A stretch of 64,000 nt of DNA. It comes from Candidatus Thalassarchaeum betae (GTDB lineage: Archaea > Thermoplasmatota > Poseidoniia > Poseidoniales > Thalassarchaeaceae). The DNA lies in the NCBI GenBank assembly GCA_003193925.1, contig PSPG01000008.1, positions 73,848 to 137,847 of the forward strand, in the 5' to 3' direction. Each line of letters starts with the position of its first letter. Positions within the stretch are counted from its first letter, which is position 1. Of the stretch, positions 11,964-22,853 are shown one piece after another. The notes under the pieces were generated by a model. The model saw only the letters and a program-made list of their open reading frames with translations. It was not told the origin of the DNA and did no database searches. The position numbers were made by a program, and so were the translations under genes.

Positions 11964-12281
11964 ATGGGGAAAGTTGTCGAGGCGAGTGACGCTGATTTCG
12001 ACATGGTGACTAACAGTGACGAGTGGGTCCTAGTGGACTTCTGGGCGCCTTGGTGCGGTCCGTGCAAGATGATTGCGCCGGTGCTTGAGCAGATCGCCGG
12101 AGAACGTGAAATCACCATAGCCAAGGTCAACACCGATGTCAATCAGCTCTCACCCGGGAAATACGGCGTCCGAGGTATACCGAACCTCATTCTGTTCCGC
12201 AACGGCCAACTCGTCGATCGGATGACCGGGGCCATGCCGAAGCTCGGGATGGACGACTGGCTCGACCGGCACATGGCCTAG
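11964..12281 (+). CDS. trxA: Thioredoxin
   Basis: VDFWAPWCGPCKMIAP; SD-like AGGTGA before ATG 11964. Confidence 0.95.
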   Translation: MGKVVEASDADFDMVTNSDEWVLVDFWAPWCGPCKMIAPVLEQIAGEREITIAKVNTDVNQLSPGKYGVRGIPNLILFRNGQLVDRMTGAMPKLGMDDWLDRHMA

Positions 12282-13822
12282 TCGACTGCCTCGCGCAGCC
12301 TCCGTGCTCGCTCCTCGTGCGGCGCGCCGACTTCCCTCAGCAGTCGGGCGCGCAGCGCCTCGTGCAGCCACATACCATCGCTGAGCTCCAGCATCAGGCC
12401 GCGTTCGAGCAGGTCTGCTGGCGGAGGGCCATCGGCGCCTGCAGCAGCCGCTAAGGTGGCCCATGGGACAGGGCGCTCTGCGACCGCGAGCAGGGCGAGC
12501 ATCTCCCGTCGGTCGCCGGGCAGCACGTCGAGTATCTCCTCGTCGAGGAAGCGCAGCCAGTCCTCGTGCAGGGTCTGGCCGTACATCTCGAGCAGTTCGA
12601 CGGCCAGCGGGTGCCCACCGGTGGCGCGATGGATTTCCTCTGCGGGCGCTTCGCTCGGCAAGTCGAGCGAAGCGAGCCACGCGGAGATCTCCTCGAGAGT
12701 CAGGCCCGAGAGGGAGAGTTCGGACACGCGTCCTCGCGTGTGCACATCGCGCCTGTCGTAGAAGGCGAGATTGGTGCGAGAAATCAGAAGCAGTCGCATC
12801 GGAGAAGCCTCAGCGATTTGTAGCAGCGCGCCGAACAGGTGCGCCCCGTCGGAGCCGATGTTGTGGACGTCGTCAAGTATCACCAGCAGTTCCTCCGAGG
12901 TGCCACCGCAGCGTCCATCCTCATCGAGCAGGTGAGCAATCAGGCGGCGACGATACTGATCGAGGTCGAGTCGGGCGCCGGGCTTGAGAGGGAGGGCCTC
13001 AAGGATGCTGTATGGGTCCTCGGAGTCGTCATCAGGGCCGATGCCGAGCCTGTGCAGCAGGCTCGTGGCGATACCCAGCGGAGAGTCCCATGGCTGGCAC
13101 GGGTAGTACATCACGTCAAGCTCTGGCTTGTCTCCAAGCAGCCCCTCGAGCCAGAAGGAGGCCAACGTGGTCTTACCGCACCCAGCGATGCCGGACAGCA
13201 CGAACATGGGCGTGGCCGAGGAGTGCCAGTCGTCCAGCCTCAGCTTCTCTGCAGACCTGCCGTGAACAGTGCGCGTCTCGGGCAGGCGCGTGTGGTAGGT
13301 GGAGTGGGCGCCCGCCAGCAGGGAGAGAGATCCAGGGGAGGGTGCGTCGTCGGGCTTGACGATGGCCCCGAAGCGGATGTCGCCGAAGTTCAGCACGCCC
13401 TCGTGCTGAGCGTGCATCAGGACCTGTAGCAGCGTCAATCCGGTCTGCAGCCGCGCTGCGGCCTCGTCGGCACGAACCTCCAGCAACTTGCCGTCGTGGC
13501 TGCGCAGGAGGATCTGGGTTGAGCGGAGGTCCGCAATGCGCTCGCGCGCCTCCGCGCGCCCCTCCTCGGTGAGTTGCCACGTCTTCTGGCGGCGCTCGTC
13601 CCCCCGGACAGTGCGAGTGTGCTCGGTGACCCAGTCGTTGGACATCAGCTCGCGCATCGAGCGAGACACGTTGGGCGGGTGCAGAGCGCATATCTCCGCG
13701 ATTCCGGGACGAGTCATCTCGTAGGTCACGAGGTAGTGGTCCGCTTGGTGGTCCTGCTCCCACAGATGCAGCAGAATGCGGTCCGAGACGGGTACGGAGA
13801 CCCGAGCGTCATTGCGCACCAT
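12278..13822 (-). CDS. Winged-HTH plus STAND-like (MalT/NB-ARC) P-loop ATPase
   Basis: N-terminal wHTH (TRPGIAE...VSRSMRELM); GIAGCGKTTLA; LVILDDVH; TGGHPLA. Confidence 0.8.
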   Translation of the reverse strand: MVRNDARVSVPVSDRILLHLWEQDHQADHYLVTYEMTRPGIAEICALHPPNVSRSMRELMSNDWVTEHTRTVRGDERRQKTWQLTEEGRAEARERIADLRSTQILLRSHDGKLLEVRADEAAARLQTGLTLLQVLMHAQHEGVLNFGDIRFGAIVKPDDAPSPGSLSLLAGAHSTYHTRLPETRTVHGRSAEKLRLDDWHSSATPMFVLSGIAGCGKTTLASFWLEGLLGDKPELDVMYYPCQPWDSPLGIATSLLHRLGIGPDDDSEDPYSILEALPLKPGARLDLDQYRRRLIAHLLDEDGRCGGTSEELLVILDDVHNIGSDGAHLFGALLQIAEASPMRLLLISRTNLAFYDRRDVHTRGRVSELSLSGLTLEEISAWLASLDLPSEAPAEEIHRATGGHPLAVELLEMYGQTLHEDWLRFLDEEILDVLPGDRREMLALLAVAERPVPWATLAAAAGADGPPPADLLERGLMLELSDGMWLHEALRARLLREVGAPHEERARRLREAVD

Positions 13823-16412: not shown

Positions 16413-17501
16413 ATGGGCGGCCATACCTTGGAGGGGCTCGCATCGCTGGTGCGCAACCTCGGCAGCGCCTGCACCTTGCTGCGCATTGCCGACGACGACC
16501 TGCTGGCTGGCTCGCAAGAAGGAGAGCTGATATGCTGGTCAGTCGAATCCGGCACCGAGCGCTGGAGGGTCGAGGTCGACGGGCCATTGTCCGACCTCGC
16601 CATCGACGGCGGTCGTGTCTACGCCTCGGCCTCAGCCAGCCTGCACGCGATTGACCTGGATACTGGCGAGATTCTCTGGAGTCGGGGGCTCGAGGGGGCG
16701 AGCGACTACGTCCAAGCATGGGACGGCAGCGTCTGGGCTGTGTCCTCGGTCTATGAGATCGAGGTTTCCGACTACACCGAGTCGACTGTCTGGAGATTCG
16801 ACGGAATGGGGGAGCTGCAGGAGCGCTGGACTGTGCCTGAACGCGCTTGGCACTTCGGACTGCACGAAGACGGGGGCGTCCTGCTCGGTCTCGGCAGACC
16901 CCGCTGCGGGTTCCTGAGAATCCGAAGCGGTGAGGAGCCTGAGCATCACCAGATCGAGGGTGACAGCCCCGTCACAGTCGGAGCCTGCGGTTCGAGCGGT
17001 CGGTTCCTGATTGGCCACTCCGACGGAAGCGTCAGTACGATCGTCGGCTCCGACGCGAAGACCGCAGGCGAGGGGTCGTCGCCGGTTCGTGCCATCACCG
17101 GCCACGGCGACGATTGGATCGCCGGTCAGGAATCGGGCCAAGTCGTCTCGAGCCGGGGTTGGACCACGACGGCGGCCGGCTCGGTGGACTCGCTCTCGAT
17201 GGGGCCCTCGACATCCGAGGGCGAAGCCGTCTGGGTATCCTCGTGGAAAGGAGACGGGGTGAGAATATCGGTCCTCGACCCAGACGGCGGCGGCTCCCTG
17301 CTGGAGTTCGACCACGGCCATAGGACAAGGCACATCCAAGCGAGCGCAGGTAAAGTCGTCCTAGGGGACTCCAGGGGGCGAATTCACCTGATCGAGGCAG
17401 GGGTCCTTACAAGGCGCGTGAAGGAATCGCCCGTGCCTGCCTCTGACGATGAGAATCGGGAGCGCCTGATGGAGCGTCTGAGGCAGCTTCGCGGCTCTTG
17501 A
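16413..17501 (+). CDS. PQQ-like/WD40 beta-propeller protein
   Basis: ESGTERWR, LHAIDLDTGEILWS blade repeats. Confidence 0.7.
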   Translation: MGGHTLEGLASLVRNLGSACTLLRIADDDLLAGSQEGELICWSVESGTERWRVEVDGPLSDLAIDGGRVYASASASLHAIDLDTGEILWSRGLEGASDYVQAWDGSVWAVSSVYEIEVSDYTESTVWRFDGMGELQERWTVPERAWHFGLHEDGGVLLGLGRPRCGFLRIRSGEEPEHHQIEGDSPVTVGACGSSGRFLIGHSDGSVSTIVGSDAKTAGEGSSPVRAITGHGDDWIAGQESGQVVSSRGWTTTAAGSVDSLSMGPSTSEGEAVWVSSWKGDGVRISVLDPDGGGSLLEFDHGHRTRHIQASAGKVVLGDSRGRIHLIEAGVLTRRVKESPVPASDDENRERLMERLRQLRGS

Positions 17502-17558
17502 ATTCAATAGAAATTAACAGTTGGGTACCCCTGTTTCCGGTGGACTGCGGGTCTGTTT

Positions 17559-17572
17559 GAAAAGGTTTAAGT
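17559..17572 (+). promoter_or_regulatory. Archaeal BRE-TATA promoter
   Basis: GAAAAGG-TTTAAGT; pyrimidine-purine step T/G17597 at canonical spacing. Confidence 0.7.
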
Positions 17573-17596
17573 GGGTACACCTGCCCTGTCATCTTT

Positions 17597-18440
17597 GCCG
17601 CTTCTTTGGAGTGGTGTGGGGGCGCTTCGGCGCGACCCGCGGGCCACAGAACGAAGCCCCGAGAAAGGGGCGGCGGAACCCGGGATCTGGAAAGAGAACG
17701 GGGAAGAGTCGGAACGCCTGTAGGCGGGAAGACGGCGGGAGAGCCGAAGCGGACGAGAGTGGAGAGAACCGGAGAGAACTGGACGAAAGGAAGGGGGAGG
17801 AAGGGGAAAGGAAGCTGGAGGAAGCGGAGGGGGAAGCTGAGGAAAACGTAACCGAACTGGAGAGAACTGGACGCAAGGAAGGGGAAGGAAGGGGAAAACA
17901 CAACCGAGGCAGAGGAACCATCCCGAAGAGATACGCGCGGAAGGGGGAGGAGACGAACCTGGAGGCGGCGTGGAGAACGAAGTGGAGAGACCGACGGGAA
18001 CCGGACGCAAGGAAGGGGAAGAACGGGAAGGAAGCGGAGGAGGAACACGAGTGAACGAGGGCGGAGAGATCCGTGGAGGAAGCTGTATCGGACCGTGGAG
18101 AGAACCGGAGAGAACTGGACGCAAGGAAGGGGGAGGAAGGGGAAGGAAGCGGAGAACGCGAAGGGGGGGGAAACGCCCTTGGAGAGAGAAGATGAGCGAA
18201 GTGGAGAGAACCGGAGAGAACTGGACGCAAGGAAGGGGGAGGAAGGGGAAGGAAGCGGAGCGCGACGAAGTGGAGAGAACCGGAGAGAACTGGACGCAAG
18301 GAAGGGGGAGGAAGGGGAAGGAAGCGGAGGAGTCTACCCGGGGAAGCCCGGGCCTTAGGGCCCGGGGGACACCCGGACCCTGCGGAGTATGCAGGGGGGG
18401 AAGCTCCCCCATGTGCGGAACCCCCTGCTGCTCCCACCTG
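17597..18440 (+). ncRNA. Candidate large structured ncRNA of unknown family
   Basis: Upstream promoter; GC hairpins at both ends including GCGC-UUCG-GCGC; internal frame-independent repeats; no credible CDS; ends approximate. Confidence 0.5.
17759..18329 (+). repeat. Array of 60-nt purine-rich repeats with variable spacers
   Basis: GTGGAGAGAACCGGAGAGAACTGGACGCAAGGAAGGGGGAGGAAGGGGAAGGAAGCGGAG exact at 18095, 18201, 18270; degenerate or partial near 17759, 17857, 17982. Confidence 0.95.
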
Positions 18441-18487
18441 TACCGCCAAGTACGTCATCGGCCCACCTTGTCAGCGTTACAATCATT

Positions 18488-18506
18488 GCGGAGCGTTTCG
18501 CTCCGC
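18488..18506. terminator. Perfect hairpin downstream of fumC; possible terminator or 3' stabiliser
   Basis: GCGGAGCG-TTT-CGCTCCGC. Confidence 0.35.
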
Positions 18507-18540
18507 TTGAGACGGTTTCGGAAGGCTGAGAAAATCACCG

Positions 18541-20142
<1,602 letters not shown>

Positions 20143-20232: not shown

Positions 20233-20718
20233 CTAGATTCGCTCGACACTGACGATTTGCTGTGGGTCATAGGGCCGGTCACCTGGCTTGATGTCGCAAT
20301 TCTCGATTCGGTACACGTTCTCCATACCCTCGATGACCTCTCCGAAGACTGCGTGGTTGCCATCGAGCCACGGTGTGGGCACGGTGGTGAGGAAGAACTG
20401 CGAGCCGCCGGTGTTGCGGCCCGCGTTGGCCATCGAGAACAGCCCGGGACGGTCGTGTCGCTTGGCGAGGGCTGAGGGCTCGCACGGAATCTTCCACCCA
20501 GGCCCCCCAGTACCAGCGGCTCGGCTGTCCGGGTCCCTCGAGCGCGGGCAGCCTCCTTGGATCATGAAATCCTTGATGACGCGGTGGAAGTGCTGGCCAT
20601 TGTAGAACCCGGCATCGACGAGCTTGAGGAAGTTCCCCGTGGTCTCCGGGCAGTCCTCGGTGTACAGTGCGATCAGTATCTCTCCGGCGCTGGTTGTCAT
20701 CTTGACTACAGTAGGCAT
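20233..20718 (-). CDS. Cyclophilin-type peptidyl-prolyl isomerase
   Basis: FHRVIKDFMIQGG, SMANAG, GSQFF, WLDGNHAVFG. Confidence 0.95.
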   Translation of the reverse strand: MPTVVKMTTSAGEILIALYTEDCPETTGNFLKLVDAGFYNGQHFHRVIKDFMIQGGCPRSRDPDSRAAGTGGPGWKIPCEPSALAKRHDRPGLFSMANAGRNTGGSQFFLTTVPTPWLDGNHAVFGEVIEGMENVYRIENCDIKPGDRPYDPQQIVSVERI

Positions 20719-20797
20719 GGACTCGGGAACGCTCACAGGCACAAGAGCATATGTGTGTCGCCCTAACCCTAATGATGGTGTCCGGAACTGGCCCAAT

Positions 20798-21967
20798 GTG
20801 AGTACCCTTAGCGACTACGACTGCCCCAAGTGCTCGACGAAACTCAGGGTGGAGTCAGCCGAGGAAGTAGATGGCGTCGACTTGCTGGTCTGCATCAAGT
20901 GCTGGGGCCTCGCAGTACAGGCCAAGACGATGCAAGGAATCGTTCCTGACGAAGTACGGGAGAAAATCGAGAACGCGGGGTTCAAGCACCCAGAGGGGCG
21001 CAGCTGCCCGGTTTGCCCCTCTACGATGATGGAAATAGCAGTGCCCAAACCATTCGGATCAGAGGACCGAGCGAGCGAGCACGATGTGAAGATAGACATC
21101 TGCGGGGACTGCGCCACCATCTGGTTCGATGCAGGCGAGCTCGACACCCTGAACGGCATCAAGCCGAAGCTGCGTAAGGTGGAGATGGAGGATAGCGCTG
21201 ACAAGATAACGGCGGTTGTCGACGACTCGAGTTCCTCAGTGAAGTCGAGGAGGGTCGCGGGGATTTTCCTAGCATCACTCGGGTTGATGTTGCTGGGTGC
21301 AGGTTCGGGTGCCTGCTGGTCCATCACATCACTTCTGGTGATCCTGGGAGGCGGGATCCTTGCCATTACCGTGGCCCCGGAGACCGGACTTGAGAAGGGG
21401 GCCTGCAGCCGCTGCGGCCTCGAGGACGAGACGATTGGTTGGACTTGCCAGAGGGCGGGGTGCGAGGCTCCCATCTGCACCACATGCAGGTCGGCGGGTC
21501 AAGATCCGGCCGCGCAATACGTGAAGACCCTAGGTGGCGGTGCGTTGATGGTGGCGGGAGTCGTGCTTGGTATCGGTCTCCTCGTCGTCACTGAAGGGGC
21601 TGTGGCTGAAGGATTCCTCCCGGCAGCAGCCGGTTACGAATTGATTTCAGACGATGAGGAGGAAGGTCTGCTAGTCTGCAAGGAATGCAAAAAGGAGATG
21701 GGTGCCCTTCAGTTCGCCGATTCCGATGCTCGCACAGAAAGAAAGGAATGGACTGAGAAGGAAAAGAAGACGGCGGCAGGGGGGCCTTGGGATGTTGTCG
21801 ATTCTTTCGCCGAGGGGGTGAAGGATGCGGAGTCAAAGAGTGCTCAGCGCGAAGAGTACCTGAAATCGCAGACCCACTGCCTACACATTGACGGGAAGAC
21901 TGTCAAAAGGTGCCGCAGGATGGTTTTTCGCAAGTCAGGCTACTGCTACAGACACCAACGGGAGTGA
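20798..21967 (+). CDS. Multi-zinc-finger membrane protein (two zf-TFIIB-like ribbons)
   Basis: CPKC/CIKC, CPVC/CGDC-IWFDAGEL, hydrophobic segments, C-terminal C..C..CYRH; GTG start inferred. Confidence 0.75.
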   Translation: MSTLSDYDCPKCSTKLRVESAEEVDGVDLLVCIKCWGLAVQAKTMQGIVPDEVREKIENAGFKHPEGRSCPVCPSTMMEIAVPKPFGSEDRASEHDVKIDICGDCATIWFDAGELDTLNGIKPKLRKVEMEDSADKITAVVDDSSSSVKSRRVAGIFLASLGLMLLGAGSGACWSITSLLVILGGGILAITVAPETGLEKGACSRCGLEDETIGWTCQRAGCEAPICTTCRSAGQDPAAQYVKTLGGGALMVAGVVLGIGLLVVTEGAVAEGFLPAAAGYELISDDEEEGLLVCKECKKEMGALQFADSDARTERKEWTEKEKKTAAGGPWDVVDSFAEGVKDAESKSAQREEYLKSQTHCLHIDGKTVKRCRRMVFRKSGYCYRHQRE

Positions 21968-21971
21968 TTGA

Positions 21972-22853
21972 ATGGCAAAGTGCAAGGGCATAGATGAGAA
22001 TGGAGAGGTTTGTGGGCGCCCCGCCATGTACAATTCCGATTACTGCAAGAATCACAGGACTCAGGACCCAACTGTGAGTATCTGCATGGGCAAGAACCCC
22101 GCTGGCAAACCCTGCTCTAGGATGGCGTTGGAGGGCCTTCTATTCTGCAGGCAGCACAGGACCCAGATAGCTGATATCGAAAAGCTCCAATGCCCCCGGG
22201 GATGCGGTCTGCTCAGTTACAGATGGGTAGACAACAAAGGCGGGTACTATGTTTGCAAAGAATGCAGGGGTGCAGTGCTAGATTCAAAGGCGATGGAGAC
22301 TAGGCTTTCGAAGCACGTTGAGGGTCTAAACGAGCTTCTTGAGAGTGGTGAGGAGTGCTCTCTGAAGTGCCCTAATTGCGAGGGTGTGATGCTAGAGTTC
22401 AGGGTTGCCTACGTAATCGAAAGAGGTGGTGGTGGAGGCATGCACTTAGGCGGTGGCGGTGGTGGTGGTGCAATAATTGCCGGTATCGTTGTACTCGCCA
22501 TAGTTGCAGCAGCTGCTGAAGCCTCAAAGAGGAAGTCCAAAGGTGAATATGAGCAGAATATAGGAGAAACCATGGTAGTCGATGGGTGTCGAGAGTGTGG
22601 GACATTCTGGTTCGATGGTGACGAATTGGGCATTGCACGAAACTCGTTAATCGAGGGCGCGAGTGCAGCGCATGTAGCCCGGATACAAGCAAATATTGCC
22701 GAGAAGAAGGCGTCCAAAGAGAGAATTCGATCGGCGGCTGGAACGGAGAATTGCATGCATGTTGAGAAGCGTGGGATGCCCCCGGCTTTGAAGAAGTGTA
22801 GAAGGGTCACTTATCGCGGCACTGAATACTGCTACATGCACCAGCCGGAGTGA
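21972..22853 (+). CDS. Multi-zinc-finger protein related to the upstream gene
   Basis: Two N-terminal C-x8-C-x9-C-x2-H units, zf-TFIIB-like CREC-GTFWFDGDEL, C-terminal CYMH. Confidence 0.75.
   Translation: MAKCKGIDENGEVCGRPAMYNSDYCKNHRTQDPTVSICMGKNPAGKPCSRMALEGLLFCRQHRTQIADIEKLQCPRGCGLLSYRWVDNKGGYYVCKECRGAVLDSKAMETRLSKHVEGLNELLESGEECSLKCPNCEGVMLEFRVAYVIERGGGGGMHLGGGGGGGAIIAGIVVLAIVAAAAEASKRKSKGEYEQNIGETMVVDGCRECGTFWFDGDELGIARNSLIEGASAAHVARIQANIAEKKASKERIRSAAGTENCMHVEKRGMPPALKKCRRVTYRGTEYCYMHQPE

Follow-up and report, generated by a model that had tools for sequence, protein, structure and literature searches.

The 64,000-nucleotide stretch of contig PSPG01000008.1 of Candidatus Thalassarchaeum betae analysed here (the window, in whose coordinates all positions are given) carries what is almost certainly a real, expressed gene for a structured noncoding RNA (ncRNA), at 17597-18440. 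The RNA has a promoter of its own and a defined 5′ end, many of its base pairs are maintained by compensatory changes among relatives, and its purine-rich core arose by lineage-specific amplification of a small hairpin module. The best overall explanation, to which we assign a probability of roughly 0.6, is a structured ncRNA gene whose product would act as a scaffold for a multivalent ribonucleoprotein (RNP).

Few microbes of the surface ocean are as numerous as the Marine Group II archaea, none of which is known to have been grown in pure culture. A structured RNA of 0.5-1.2 kb, encoded by a single-copy gene in one of the two Marine Group II families and found in RNA libraries of at least 12 studies, is missing from all annotations of these genomes, and marine metatranscriptome reads are probably going unassigned as a result. 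With it, archaea may have their first known counterpart to OLE, GOLLD and ROOL, the large RNAs of bacteria. The exact ends, the consensus fold and a covariance model of the 3′ domain provide culture-free material for work on structure and partners, and there are natural variants that differ in module number (1-7) or in which domains are deleted or duplicated.

A dedicated promoter and a defined 5′ end

A preliminary description of the region had proposed a + strand RNA with its own promoter, starting at G17597 and ending near 18440. Loci with both ends placed number 45, from seven genera (genera are designated here by handles, g1 being that of the window). One of them, L009, was dropped for a gap or odd stretch, and 44 sequences each of the 5′ domain (alignment A1) and the 3′ domain (A2) were aligned with MAFFT. 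The promoter block CGAAAGGTTTAWG, which joins a B recognition element (BRE) to a TATA box, is kept in all 44 sequences; its form in the window is GAAAAGGTTTAAGT (17559-17572) and the majority form is CGAAAGGTTTATG. Next comes a variable spacer (about 20 nt), beyond which the sequences are again strongly conserved from UUGCCGC onwards. The TATA box is centred about 28 nt upstream of G17597. Since archaeal TATA boxes are centred near -26/-27, this distance fits a 5′ end at 17597.

Part of the stretch was contained in 20 of 24 listed public sequencing runs, 17 of them recorded as RNA and coming from 12 studies. Four of the 24 runs, one per study and all available as assembled contigs, were placed on the window, and their contigs were found to be distributed along the entire 17597-18440 interval. 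Contigs identical to the window were present in three of these runs (X2, 258 nt, 17867-18124; X3, 228 nt, 17897-18124; X7, 149 nt, 17623-17771). The fourth, X1, held a contig of a g6-type relative joined to the 3′ domain, indicating that homologues from other genera also occur in RNA libraries.

The 5′ end is given by run X7, in which four contigs bear loose letters, ...GGTATCAACGCAGAGTACGGG, that end in GGG and abut 17597. We take these letters to be a SMART-type template-switch oligo, which is attached where the RNA template has its 5′ end. At 17594-17596 the genome has TTT, which means that the GGG is untemplated, and the abutting oligo therefore places the 5′ end of the + strand RNA at G17597, as had been predicted, 96 nt past the stop codon of the upstream gene. 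Other letters, presumably Illumina-type adapters, abut 17603 in X1 and 17647 in X2. At the other extremity, adapter letters in X1 trail the sequence of a relative 12 nt beyond 18440, and we place the 3′ end at, or a few bases past, CCCACCU(G) at 18439-18440. AT-rich relatives have a run of T after the invariant CCCACC, as would be expected if an archaeal terminator lay at about 18440. The element thus has its own promoter and yields a defined transcript in RNA libraries, and the boundaries of the preliminary description hold at both ends.

It should be noted that contig depth was not used in this argument. In the four runs no contigs covered 17400-17567, and 18450-18650 was uncovered in three and covered at a depth of 1-7 in X1; these values were not counted as evidence, nor were the depths of tens to about 10^6 inside the element taken as evidence of level. 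Three joints in RNA contigs that skip 369-486 nt were likewise left unused; they most likely stem from shorter relatives or from repeat collapse.

Compensatory changes maintain the fold

All the sequence features that had been named between 17559 and 18440, including CGGAGAGAUCCG at 18062-18073 and CCCGGGCC-UUAG-GGCCCGGG, were found where the preliminary description had put them, and its expectation that the stems would covary in relatives was borne out. RNAalifold gave 33 pairs for A1, of which 17 were compensated, and 21 pairs for A2, of which 14 were compensated. In the curated fold of the 5′ domain (36 pairs), 90.9% of alignment cells were paired, compared to 39.8-47.6% in slid controls. 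Both sides had changed at 25/36 pairs, against 6-14 in the slid controls, and the covariation score was 0.373 against at most 0.114. The curated 3′ domain (25 pairs) behaved similarly, with 92.8% of cells paired (32.9-57.1% slid), changes on both sides at 15/25 pairs (4-10 slid) and a covariation score of 0.241 (at most 0.095 slid). For both end domains, none of 500 shuffles attained the observed value on four of five measures, and none attained the observed covariation score. Base pairs of this RNA are therefore maintained by compensatory changes, as is characteristic of a structured ncRNA.

The helices of the 5′ domain are listed in Table 1. Besides these, a two-pair contact between the loops of P2 and P5 covaries, appearing as UU/AA, GG/CC or GA/UU. 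The terminal part of the 3′ domain consists of an invariant GGAGU/GCUCC helix around a long covarying hairpin whose CCCCCA loop is invariant, and the RNA ends in an invariant unpaired tail, CACCU. Inspection by eye revealed no covariation that would pair this tail or the invariant loops with the 5′ domain.

Structure is not confined to the ends. The 36 sequences from outside the window's genus could be aligned globally, with homology over the full length and beyond the end domains, and RNAalifold on this alignment gave 156 pairs, 101 of them changed on both sides. A scan of all column pairs revealed a long-range helix between 17736-17740 and 17921-17925, in which all five pairs have changed on both sides in the 36 sequences (g6, for instance, has CGGUC/GACCG and g8 has CGAUA/UAUCG). 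This helix encloses the first module and a central sub-domain. The same scan returned the central hairpin at 18062-18073, with changes on both sides at 3/5 pairs in the 36 sequences, and further covarying hairpins. The earlier picture of a single-stranded repeat core between protected ends must accordingly be amended: the structured ends stand, while the covarying long-range helix, the conserved hairpins and the full-length homology speak against a purely single-stranded core. The CGGC-GGGAGA-GCCG hairpin that had been proposed is present as a sequence at 17733-17746, but it competes with the covarying long-range helix for the same bases.

The purine-rich core is an array of hairpin modules

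The 882-base stretch 17559-18440 contains 385 G, 262 A, 167 C and 68 T. It is present once in the 1,479,542-base genome, the RNA gene thus being single-copy, and 300-base windows of more than 72% purine occur nowhere else in that genome. Its core repeats comprise a 63-nt unit present six times, at spacings of 88, 134, 114, 106 and 69. They do not have the make-up of a CRISPR array, the units being 63 nt long, the spacings running from 69 to 134 and the 'spacers' being themselves homologous between genera; cas genes were not searched for.

The recurring element of the core is a 16-nt hairpin module with a GNRA loop. Its stem starts with two standard pairs and a third pair that may be G.A, A-U or U-A; two purine-purine pairs come next, and then the pair that closes the loop. 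This closing pair, between positions 6 and 11, is mostly C-G, but g10 and the central copy have G-C instead. Most copies carry a purine-only linker on their 3′ side. Mononucleotide shuffles gave a mean of 0.04 modules and the opposite strand gave none. The window has seven modules, the highest count among the 44 sequences; the other 43 have 1-5, usually two, and counts within g1 range from 2 to 7. With seven modules here against 1-5 in the relatives, the purine-rich array represents a recent, lineage-specific amplification of this tandem-purine-pair/GNRA hairpin on an older conserved frame. The most recent tandem duplication of a module-bearing unit is the 69-nt repeat at 18197-18329. Since no RNA-library contig bridges the boundary of this unit with 31 letters on both sides, its copy number rests on the genome assembly.

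We also compared the modules with the kink-turn (K-turn) and K-loop, the site of L7Ae, which have tandem sheared G.A pairs beside a 3-nt bulge or an open loop. The modules have two purine-purine pairs, yet positions 6 and 11 covary from C-G to G-C, which speaks for a closed GNRA tetraloop lacking a bulge. Simple GNRA hairpins are numerous in g9 (16 vs. 2.5 expected), and the opposite strand of the RNA has 0-2. Enrichment in GNRA hairpins was nevertheless dropped as a hallmark of the RNA, being non-significant in the present copy.

The gene occupies a conserved site within one family

The family was searched by BLASTN in 101 genomes, the present one among them; the element was found in 63 of these and in 8/13 genera. 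Conservation is strongest over ~190 nt at the 5′ end and ~115 nt at the 3′ end, with up to 93% nucleotide identity between genera, and the 5′ domain shows 70-81% identity between genera. Over the same loci, the upstream protein shows 24-73% amino-acid identity, below the nucleotide identity of the RNA ends. The same two convergent genes flank the RNA at 45/45 loci from the seven genera; the PQQ gene was seen at 44/45 and fumC at 44/45, the misses being contig ends. The conserved order is an M32 peptidase gene, the PQQ-propeller gene, the RNA and the convergent fumC.

The RNA measures 473-844 nt in the 44 loci and more than 1 kb in deeper genera. The loci of g10 (e.g. L013) are without a central sub-domain of ~150 nt, the one that the long-range helix encloses elsewhere, and in L024 (g12) the RNA is 473 nt long compared to ~650 nt in its genus. 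Both kinds of deletion variant could be used as natural 'mutants' in studies of structure and function.

A covariance model built from the 3′ domain (R1) was run with strict filters on large samples of genomes from families f1 to f5. In a sample of the order it matched 53/74 genomes of f1, the family of the RNA, 0/2 of f2 and 0/74 of f3, the second large family; in a sample of the class, 29/40 of f1, 0/65 of f3, 1/43 of f4 (a weak partial match) and 0/2 of f5. R1 also gave weaker matches in g2 and g11 (E values of 2e-11 to 5e-8), and it scores the deeper genera of its own family at 14 bits. Since the model barely sees these deeper genera, the zero for f3 means that the RNA was not found in the genomes searched and is no proof of absence. 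The single f4 match (G222:C17:2185-2230, covering R1 positions 77-121 with 22.9 bits, E = 3.8e-4) comes from a genome with 6% contamination, and may reflect chance, contamination or a distant relative.

Divergent copies occupy the same gap in five deeper genera. In g3 and g7, ~1.1 kb separates the PQQ gene from fumC, and the g9 locus ends short of the PQQ gene. Beside fumC, all three genera have a promoter of the same kind, an RNA opening with UUGYCGCUYY...RRAGUGRUG and a terminal architecture of GCGGAG, a long hairpin and CUCCCAA/C; these resemblances were read by eye and are unscored. RNA-bearing loci also come from Marine group II euryarchaeote REDSEA-S43_B8 (L107; 146 bits with R1) and from Candidatus Poseidoniales archaeon, and a divergent copy was seen by eye in a Candidatus Thalassarchaeaceae locus. 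Outside the clade, inspection by eye of the syntenic site in L109 (Poseidoniaceae) and L110 showed coding sequence, as in L109, or no more than a 460-nt gap. Among the genomes searched, the RNA thus appears restricted to one family of the Poseidoniales (Marine Group II).

In two loci, L102 and L103, one of them from Candidatus Thalassarchaeaceae archaeon, the RNA lies downstream of fumC and exceeds 1.2 kb and its terminal domain (GCGGAGG, long hairpin, CUCCCAAC) occurs twice, ~300 nt apart. The L102 sequence contains a run of N.

Comparison with known RNAs

The RNA had been proposed to lie outside Rfam and to lack signatures of signal recognition particle (SRP) RNA or RNase P RNA, and searches agreed on each count. 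Against the 4227 models of Rfam 15, which include OLE, GOLLD, ROOL, HEARO, the IMES RNAs and 6S, no family reached its gathering score in the region. In E-value mode only chance-level matches appeared, the best being ilvH with 25.6 bits against a gathering score of 55.1. The genome has its RNase P RNA (RF00373; C16:20489-20780, 227 bits) and its SRP RNA (RF01857; C19:97784-98096, 123 bits) on other contigs, and the region matches neither model, so both identities were rejected. Archaeal RNase P and SRP RNAs resemble the present RNA in being structured and in having their own promoters.

OLE, GOLLD, ROOL, HEARO and raiA are large structured ncRNAs of bacteria whose functions are unknown or have recently begun to emerge. 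The present RNA is like them in its size (~0.5-0.9 kb), its multi-helix covarying fold, its narrow distribution and the lack of an evident target. It differs from them in being archaeal and strongly purine-rich, in carrying a hairpin module of variable copy number, and in showing no similarity to them in sequence or to their models.

The closest published candidate is Tan1 (Candidatus Thalassoarchaea ncRNA 1), which Hou et al. (2016, Sci Rep; PMC5069720) describe as an unknown, very abundant 229-nt ncRNA from Marine Group II, ranked fifth in RNA-Seq and having a 'complex secondary structure'. Its homologues are given there as limited to Thalassoarchaea metagenomes, at 75-79% identity, and it is the sole unknown abundant ncRNA reported there besides RNase P and SRP RNA. 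Tan1 shares with the present RNA its Marine Group II host and a similar level of identity (75-79%, compared to 70-81% between genera for the 5′ domain here). It is unlike it in length, 229 nt against 844 nt with RNA contigs along the whole element. Clade, abundance and identity between genera thus fit Tan1 as the 5′ part of the RNA, while length does not. From a comparison of descriptions we lean slightly towards Tan1 belonging to this gene; it could be a 5′ fragment or a partial mapping of the longer RNA. Other than, possibly, Tan1, no description of the RNA was found in full-text searches of the literature, and neither Rfam nor the accessible part of PMC5069720 contains its full length, fold, module amplification, synteny or family-wide distribution.

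Conserved elements in the flanking DNA

A conserved block at 17511-17550, upstream of the promoter, is probably an operator for a DNA-binding regulator. Its 17-mer at 17534-17550 is unique in the genome; nine places match it with up to three mismatches, none of them beside a promoter-like context. In g2, g3, g7, g9 and g11 (L089, L081, L083, L084 and L091) the second upstream element forms a complete palindrome, TTCCA-N-TGGAA(A), frequently in two copies, and in the window's genus it is reduced to a degenerate half. The palindrome is spread over many contigs and enriched genome-wide in five relatives when compared to a reversed control (110 vs. 28 in G023, 68 vs. 28 in G008, 61 vs. 32 in G006, 32 vs. 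17 in G002 and 20 vs. 18 in G001). This dispersed palindrome resembles an operator that would serve a global regulator of the family.

Two further elements lie just downstream of the RNA. The hairpin at 18440-18453 occurs as GUAC/GUAC, GUACCG/CGGUAC or GUCC/GGAC in g1, g6, g10 and g13, its pairing being preserved across these changes, and is missing in several g1 loci, and a CGGCCCA motif a little further on is retained in most genera. These elements (18440-18465) may serve in termination or processing, or may be part of the convergent fumC transcript.

Proposed role and alternative explanations

The RNA combines a compact conserved frame with a variable number of identical exposed modules, an arrangement that suggests a platform for several copies of one partner. 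We propose, tentatively, that it is a multivalent RNP scaffold. The folded frame would stabilise the RNA and set a defined shape, and the modules would be equivalent docking sites, each taking up one copy of the partner, so that valency would differ between species. Tandem purine pairs are a common feature of protein recognition; for this reason, and because no RNA target with complementarity of 16 nt or more was found in the genome, the partner would most likely be an RNA-binding protein.

Several observations weigh against this proposal or the evidence beneath it. The neighbouring genes suggest no partner. Most relatives have two modules, implying that high valency is not essential to the function of the family. 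The module was not found in mRNA leaders, and the other 2.96 Mb of sequence (both strands) contains 18 loose, unclustered matches to it. The number of simple GNRA hairpins on 3-bp stems in this copy (2) does not exceed expectation (2.7). As to the fold, the helices were chosen partly from the data on which they were tested, the alignments are MAFFT alignments and the related sequences are not independent; the z scores from single-sequence folding are modest (whole RNA, -1.58 with 20 shuffles; 5′ domain, -2.49; 3′ domain, -2.29). The RNA-library evidence consists of assembled contigs, which are uninformative on level, strand and ends except at the library-oligo junctions, and the identification of the oligos is presumptive.

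A bolder proposal, which we consider rather unlikely, is that this is the first large 'ornate' structured RNA family defined in archaea, a Thalassarchaeaceae-type particle of 0.5-1.2 kb that would act alone or with few proteins, its modules setting the valency. Given its presence in many surface-ocean RNA libraries, such a particle could rank among the major unannotated components of ocean metatranscriptomes.

Somewhat less likely still is a purely architectural particle, in which the RNA would form a multimer or cage through loop-helix and loop-loop contacts, with the modules and purine linkers as contact surfaces. ROOL, GOLLD and OLE are reported to be large self-assembling bacterial RNAs, and the present RNA is also large, occurs in many RNA libraries, has many GNRA loops on its + strand only, folds in a complex manner with an intramolecular loop-loop contact, and has no evident protein partner or target. 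It lacks similarity to those three RNAs, however, intermolecular contacts cannot be inferred from sequence, and a number of modules that varies from one to seven is awkward for a closed symmetric assembly.

The preliminary description had suggested a 'scaffold or sponge'. Of these, the scaffold remains a matter of inference, as set out above, and a sponge of the CsrB type receives little support. A titrating RNA like CsrB/RsmZ or 6S would sequester a protein or RNA regulator of many mRNAs, its level being set through the upstream operator. The near-identical motifs repeated within one RNA found in many RNA libraries, and the operator-like block conserved upstream of the promoter, would suit such a role; like CsrB and RsmZ, the RNA presents many short purine motifs in hairpins, in copy numbers that differ between species. 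Unlike in those systems, its bulk is a covarying frame rather than a string of hairpins and its motif is not shared with mRNAs, the loose matches elsewhere amounting to no enrichment. A search for the CsrA family (PF02599) gave 0 matches in this 91.8%-complete genome. The lack of a CsrA gene and of the module in other transcripts makes a sponge less likely, most relatives have two modules only, and no complementarity of 16 nt or more to other loci was found, matches of 14-15 nt being about as numerous as expected by chance. We consider this explanation improbable. An antisense or guide RNA was also rejected: the genome contains no complementarity of at least 16 nt, and 18 14-mer matches against ~9 expected by a rough estimate.

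We give a similarly low weight to a catalytic RNA or one associated with the ribosome or translation, in which invariant unpaired segments would form an active or binding site and the repeats a dispensable expansion segment. Segments of this kind exist (GCGGGCCACA, CUACCC, GACCCUGCGGAGU, the CCCCCA loop and the CACCU tail); they are single-stranded within a covarying frame across all shallow genera, and parts of the core are lost or gained, as in g10 and the 473-nt RNA of L024, in the way that expansion segments behave. On the other hand, there is no similarity to ribozyme or rRNA models and no evident substrate, and restriction to one family would be unusual for a core translation factor.

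The idea that the locus is a DNA-level feature, such as a replication origin with an iteron array or a triplex-forming polypurine tract, with an incidental transcript, is hardly tenable. It would account for the extreme strand asymmetry and the direct repeats, and the upstream palindrome of the deeper genera resembles the core of the archaeal origin recognition box (ORB). But compensatory changes preserve pairs of the + strand RNA, including G-U pairs, the RNA libraries show a defined 5′ end, and the cumulative GC skew rises through the locus without a turn. An origin or ORB cluster was specifically rejected: both orc1/cdc6 genes lie on other contigs (C21 and C20), the upstream motif is single here and unclustered in the genome, and the palindrome, dispersed over many contigs in relatives, looks like a common operator instead.

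Equally remote is the idea that the region codes for a low-complexity protein or forms the 3′ untranslated tail of a neighbour. Long open reading frames (ORFs) do exist on the minus strand (281 and 289 aa) and the plus strand (177 and 201 aa), but their presence on both strands is due to the low T content. The repeat units fall into different frames within one ORF, their spacings keeping no single frame, and the long ORFs are not kept in relatives: in six low-GC loci of g8, the homologous stretch has 3-15 stops per frame in all six frames. The protein-coding reading was rejected on these grounds. A 3′ tail is at odds with the conserved promoter of the element itself, with the library oligos that abut 17597 well past the upstream stop codon, and with the neighbouring genes, which converge on the element. 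The interval 17597-18440 (+) is therefore an RNA gene, not a coding gap, and holds no conserved ORF.

Feature coordinates and neighbouring genes

Table 1. Features of the RNA gene and its surroundings, in window coordinates
Feature	Position	Strand	Sequence, content or basis
PQQ/beta-propeller gene, upstream neighbour	ends 17501		convergent on the RNA interval
Conserved upstream block	17511-17550	+	AAATTAACA at 17511-17519, TTTCCGGTGGACTGCGG at 17534-17550; 44-sequence alignment
Archaeal promoter	17559-17572	+	BRE-like GAAAAGG and TATA box TTTAAGT; sequence, conserved in 44-sequence alignment
RNA, ~844 nt	17597-18440	+	RNA-library contigs from 4 studies, oligo junctions
5′ domain	17597-17760	+	P1, small P2 hairpin, P3/P4, P5, P2-loop/P5-loop contact, hairpins P6-P8
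P1	17597-17601 with 17670-17674	+	GCCGC/GCGGC; C-G to U-A in 8 sequences
P3/P4 long hairpin, UUCG cap	17622-17633	+	GCGC-UUCG-GCGC
P5 hairpin	17656-17671	+	GCCCC-GAGAAA-GGGGC
Hairpin	17715-17726	+	CGCC-UGUA-GGCG
Local hairpin	17733-17746	+	CGGC-GGGAGA-GCCG
Long-range helix	17736-17740 with 17921-17925	+	CGGGA with UCCCG; scan of all column pairs, MAFFT alignment
Modules, first four of seven	17779-17794, 17867-17882, 17944-17959, 18001-18016	+	
Modules, last three of seven	18115-18130, 18221-18236, 18290-18305	+	span of all seven 17779-18305
Central hairpin	18062-18073	+	CGGA-GAGA-UCCG (CGGAGAGAUCCG); alignment columns 486-490 with 495-499
Tandem duplication of module-bearing unit	18197-18329	+	69 nt x1.9, 100% identity
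3′ domain	18325-18440	+	outer helix around CCCGGGCC-UUAG-GGCCCGGG hairpin, then terminal helix and tail
Facultative hairpin	18440-18453	+	GUAC-CGCCAA-GUAC; just past RNA 3′ end
Conserved motif	18457-18465	+	AUCGGCCCA; ~20 nt downstream of RNA 3′ end
Class II fumarase gene fumC, downstream neighbour	ends 18541		convergent on the RNA interval

Some of the genes around the RNA merit a brief mention. The fumarase ORF (18541-20142, minus strand, 533 aa) has a weak ribbon-helix-helix (RHH_1) match at residues 12-48, ahead of a Lyase_1 domain that starts at residue 81, and the whole protein of 530 aa, including its N-terminal part, aligns at 74-77% in g3, g5, g7 and g9. A class II fumarase fused to a DNA-binding-type domain thus seems to be a conserved arrangement. 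On the other side of the RNA, the 514-aa protein encoded at 12278-13822 (minus strand) combines a weak N-terminal helix-turn-helix match, AAA_16/AAA_22 NTPase domains and a C-terminal likeness to a tetratricopeptide-repeat sensor (PDB 6mfv, E = 4.9e-5). This make-up suggests a STAND-type regulator rather than Orc1/Cdc6. Beyond fumC, two adjacent genes on the plus strand (20624-21967 and 21972-22853) encode proteins with TFIIB-type zinc ribbons, the second of which also has a DUF5763 match.

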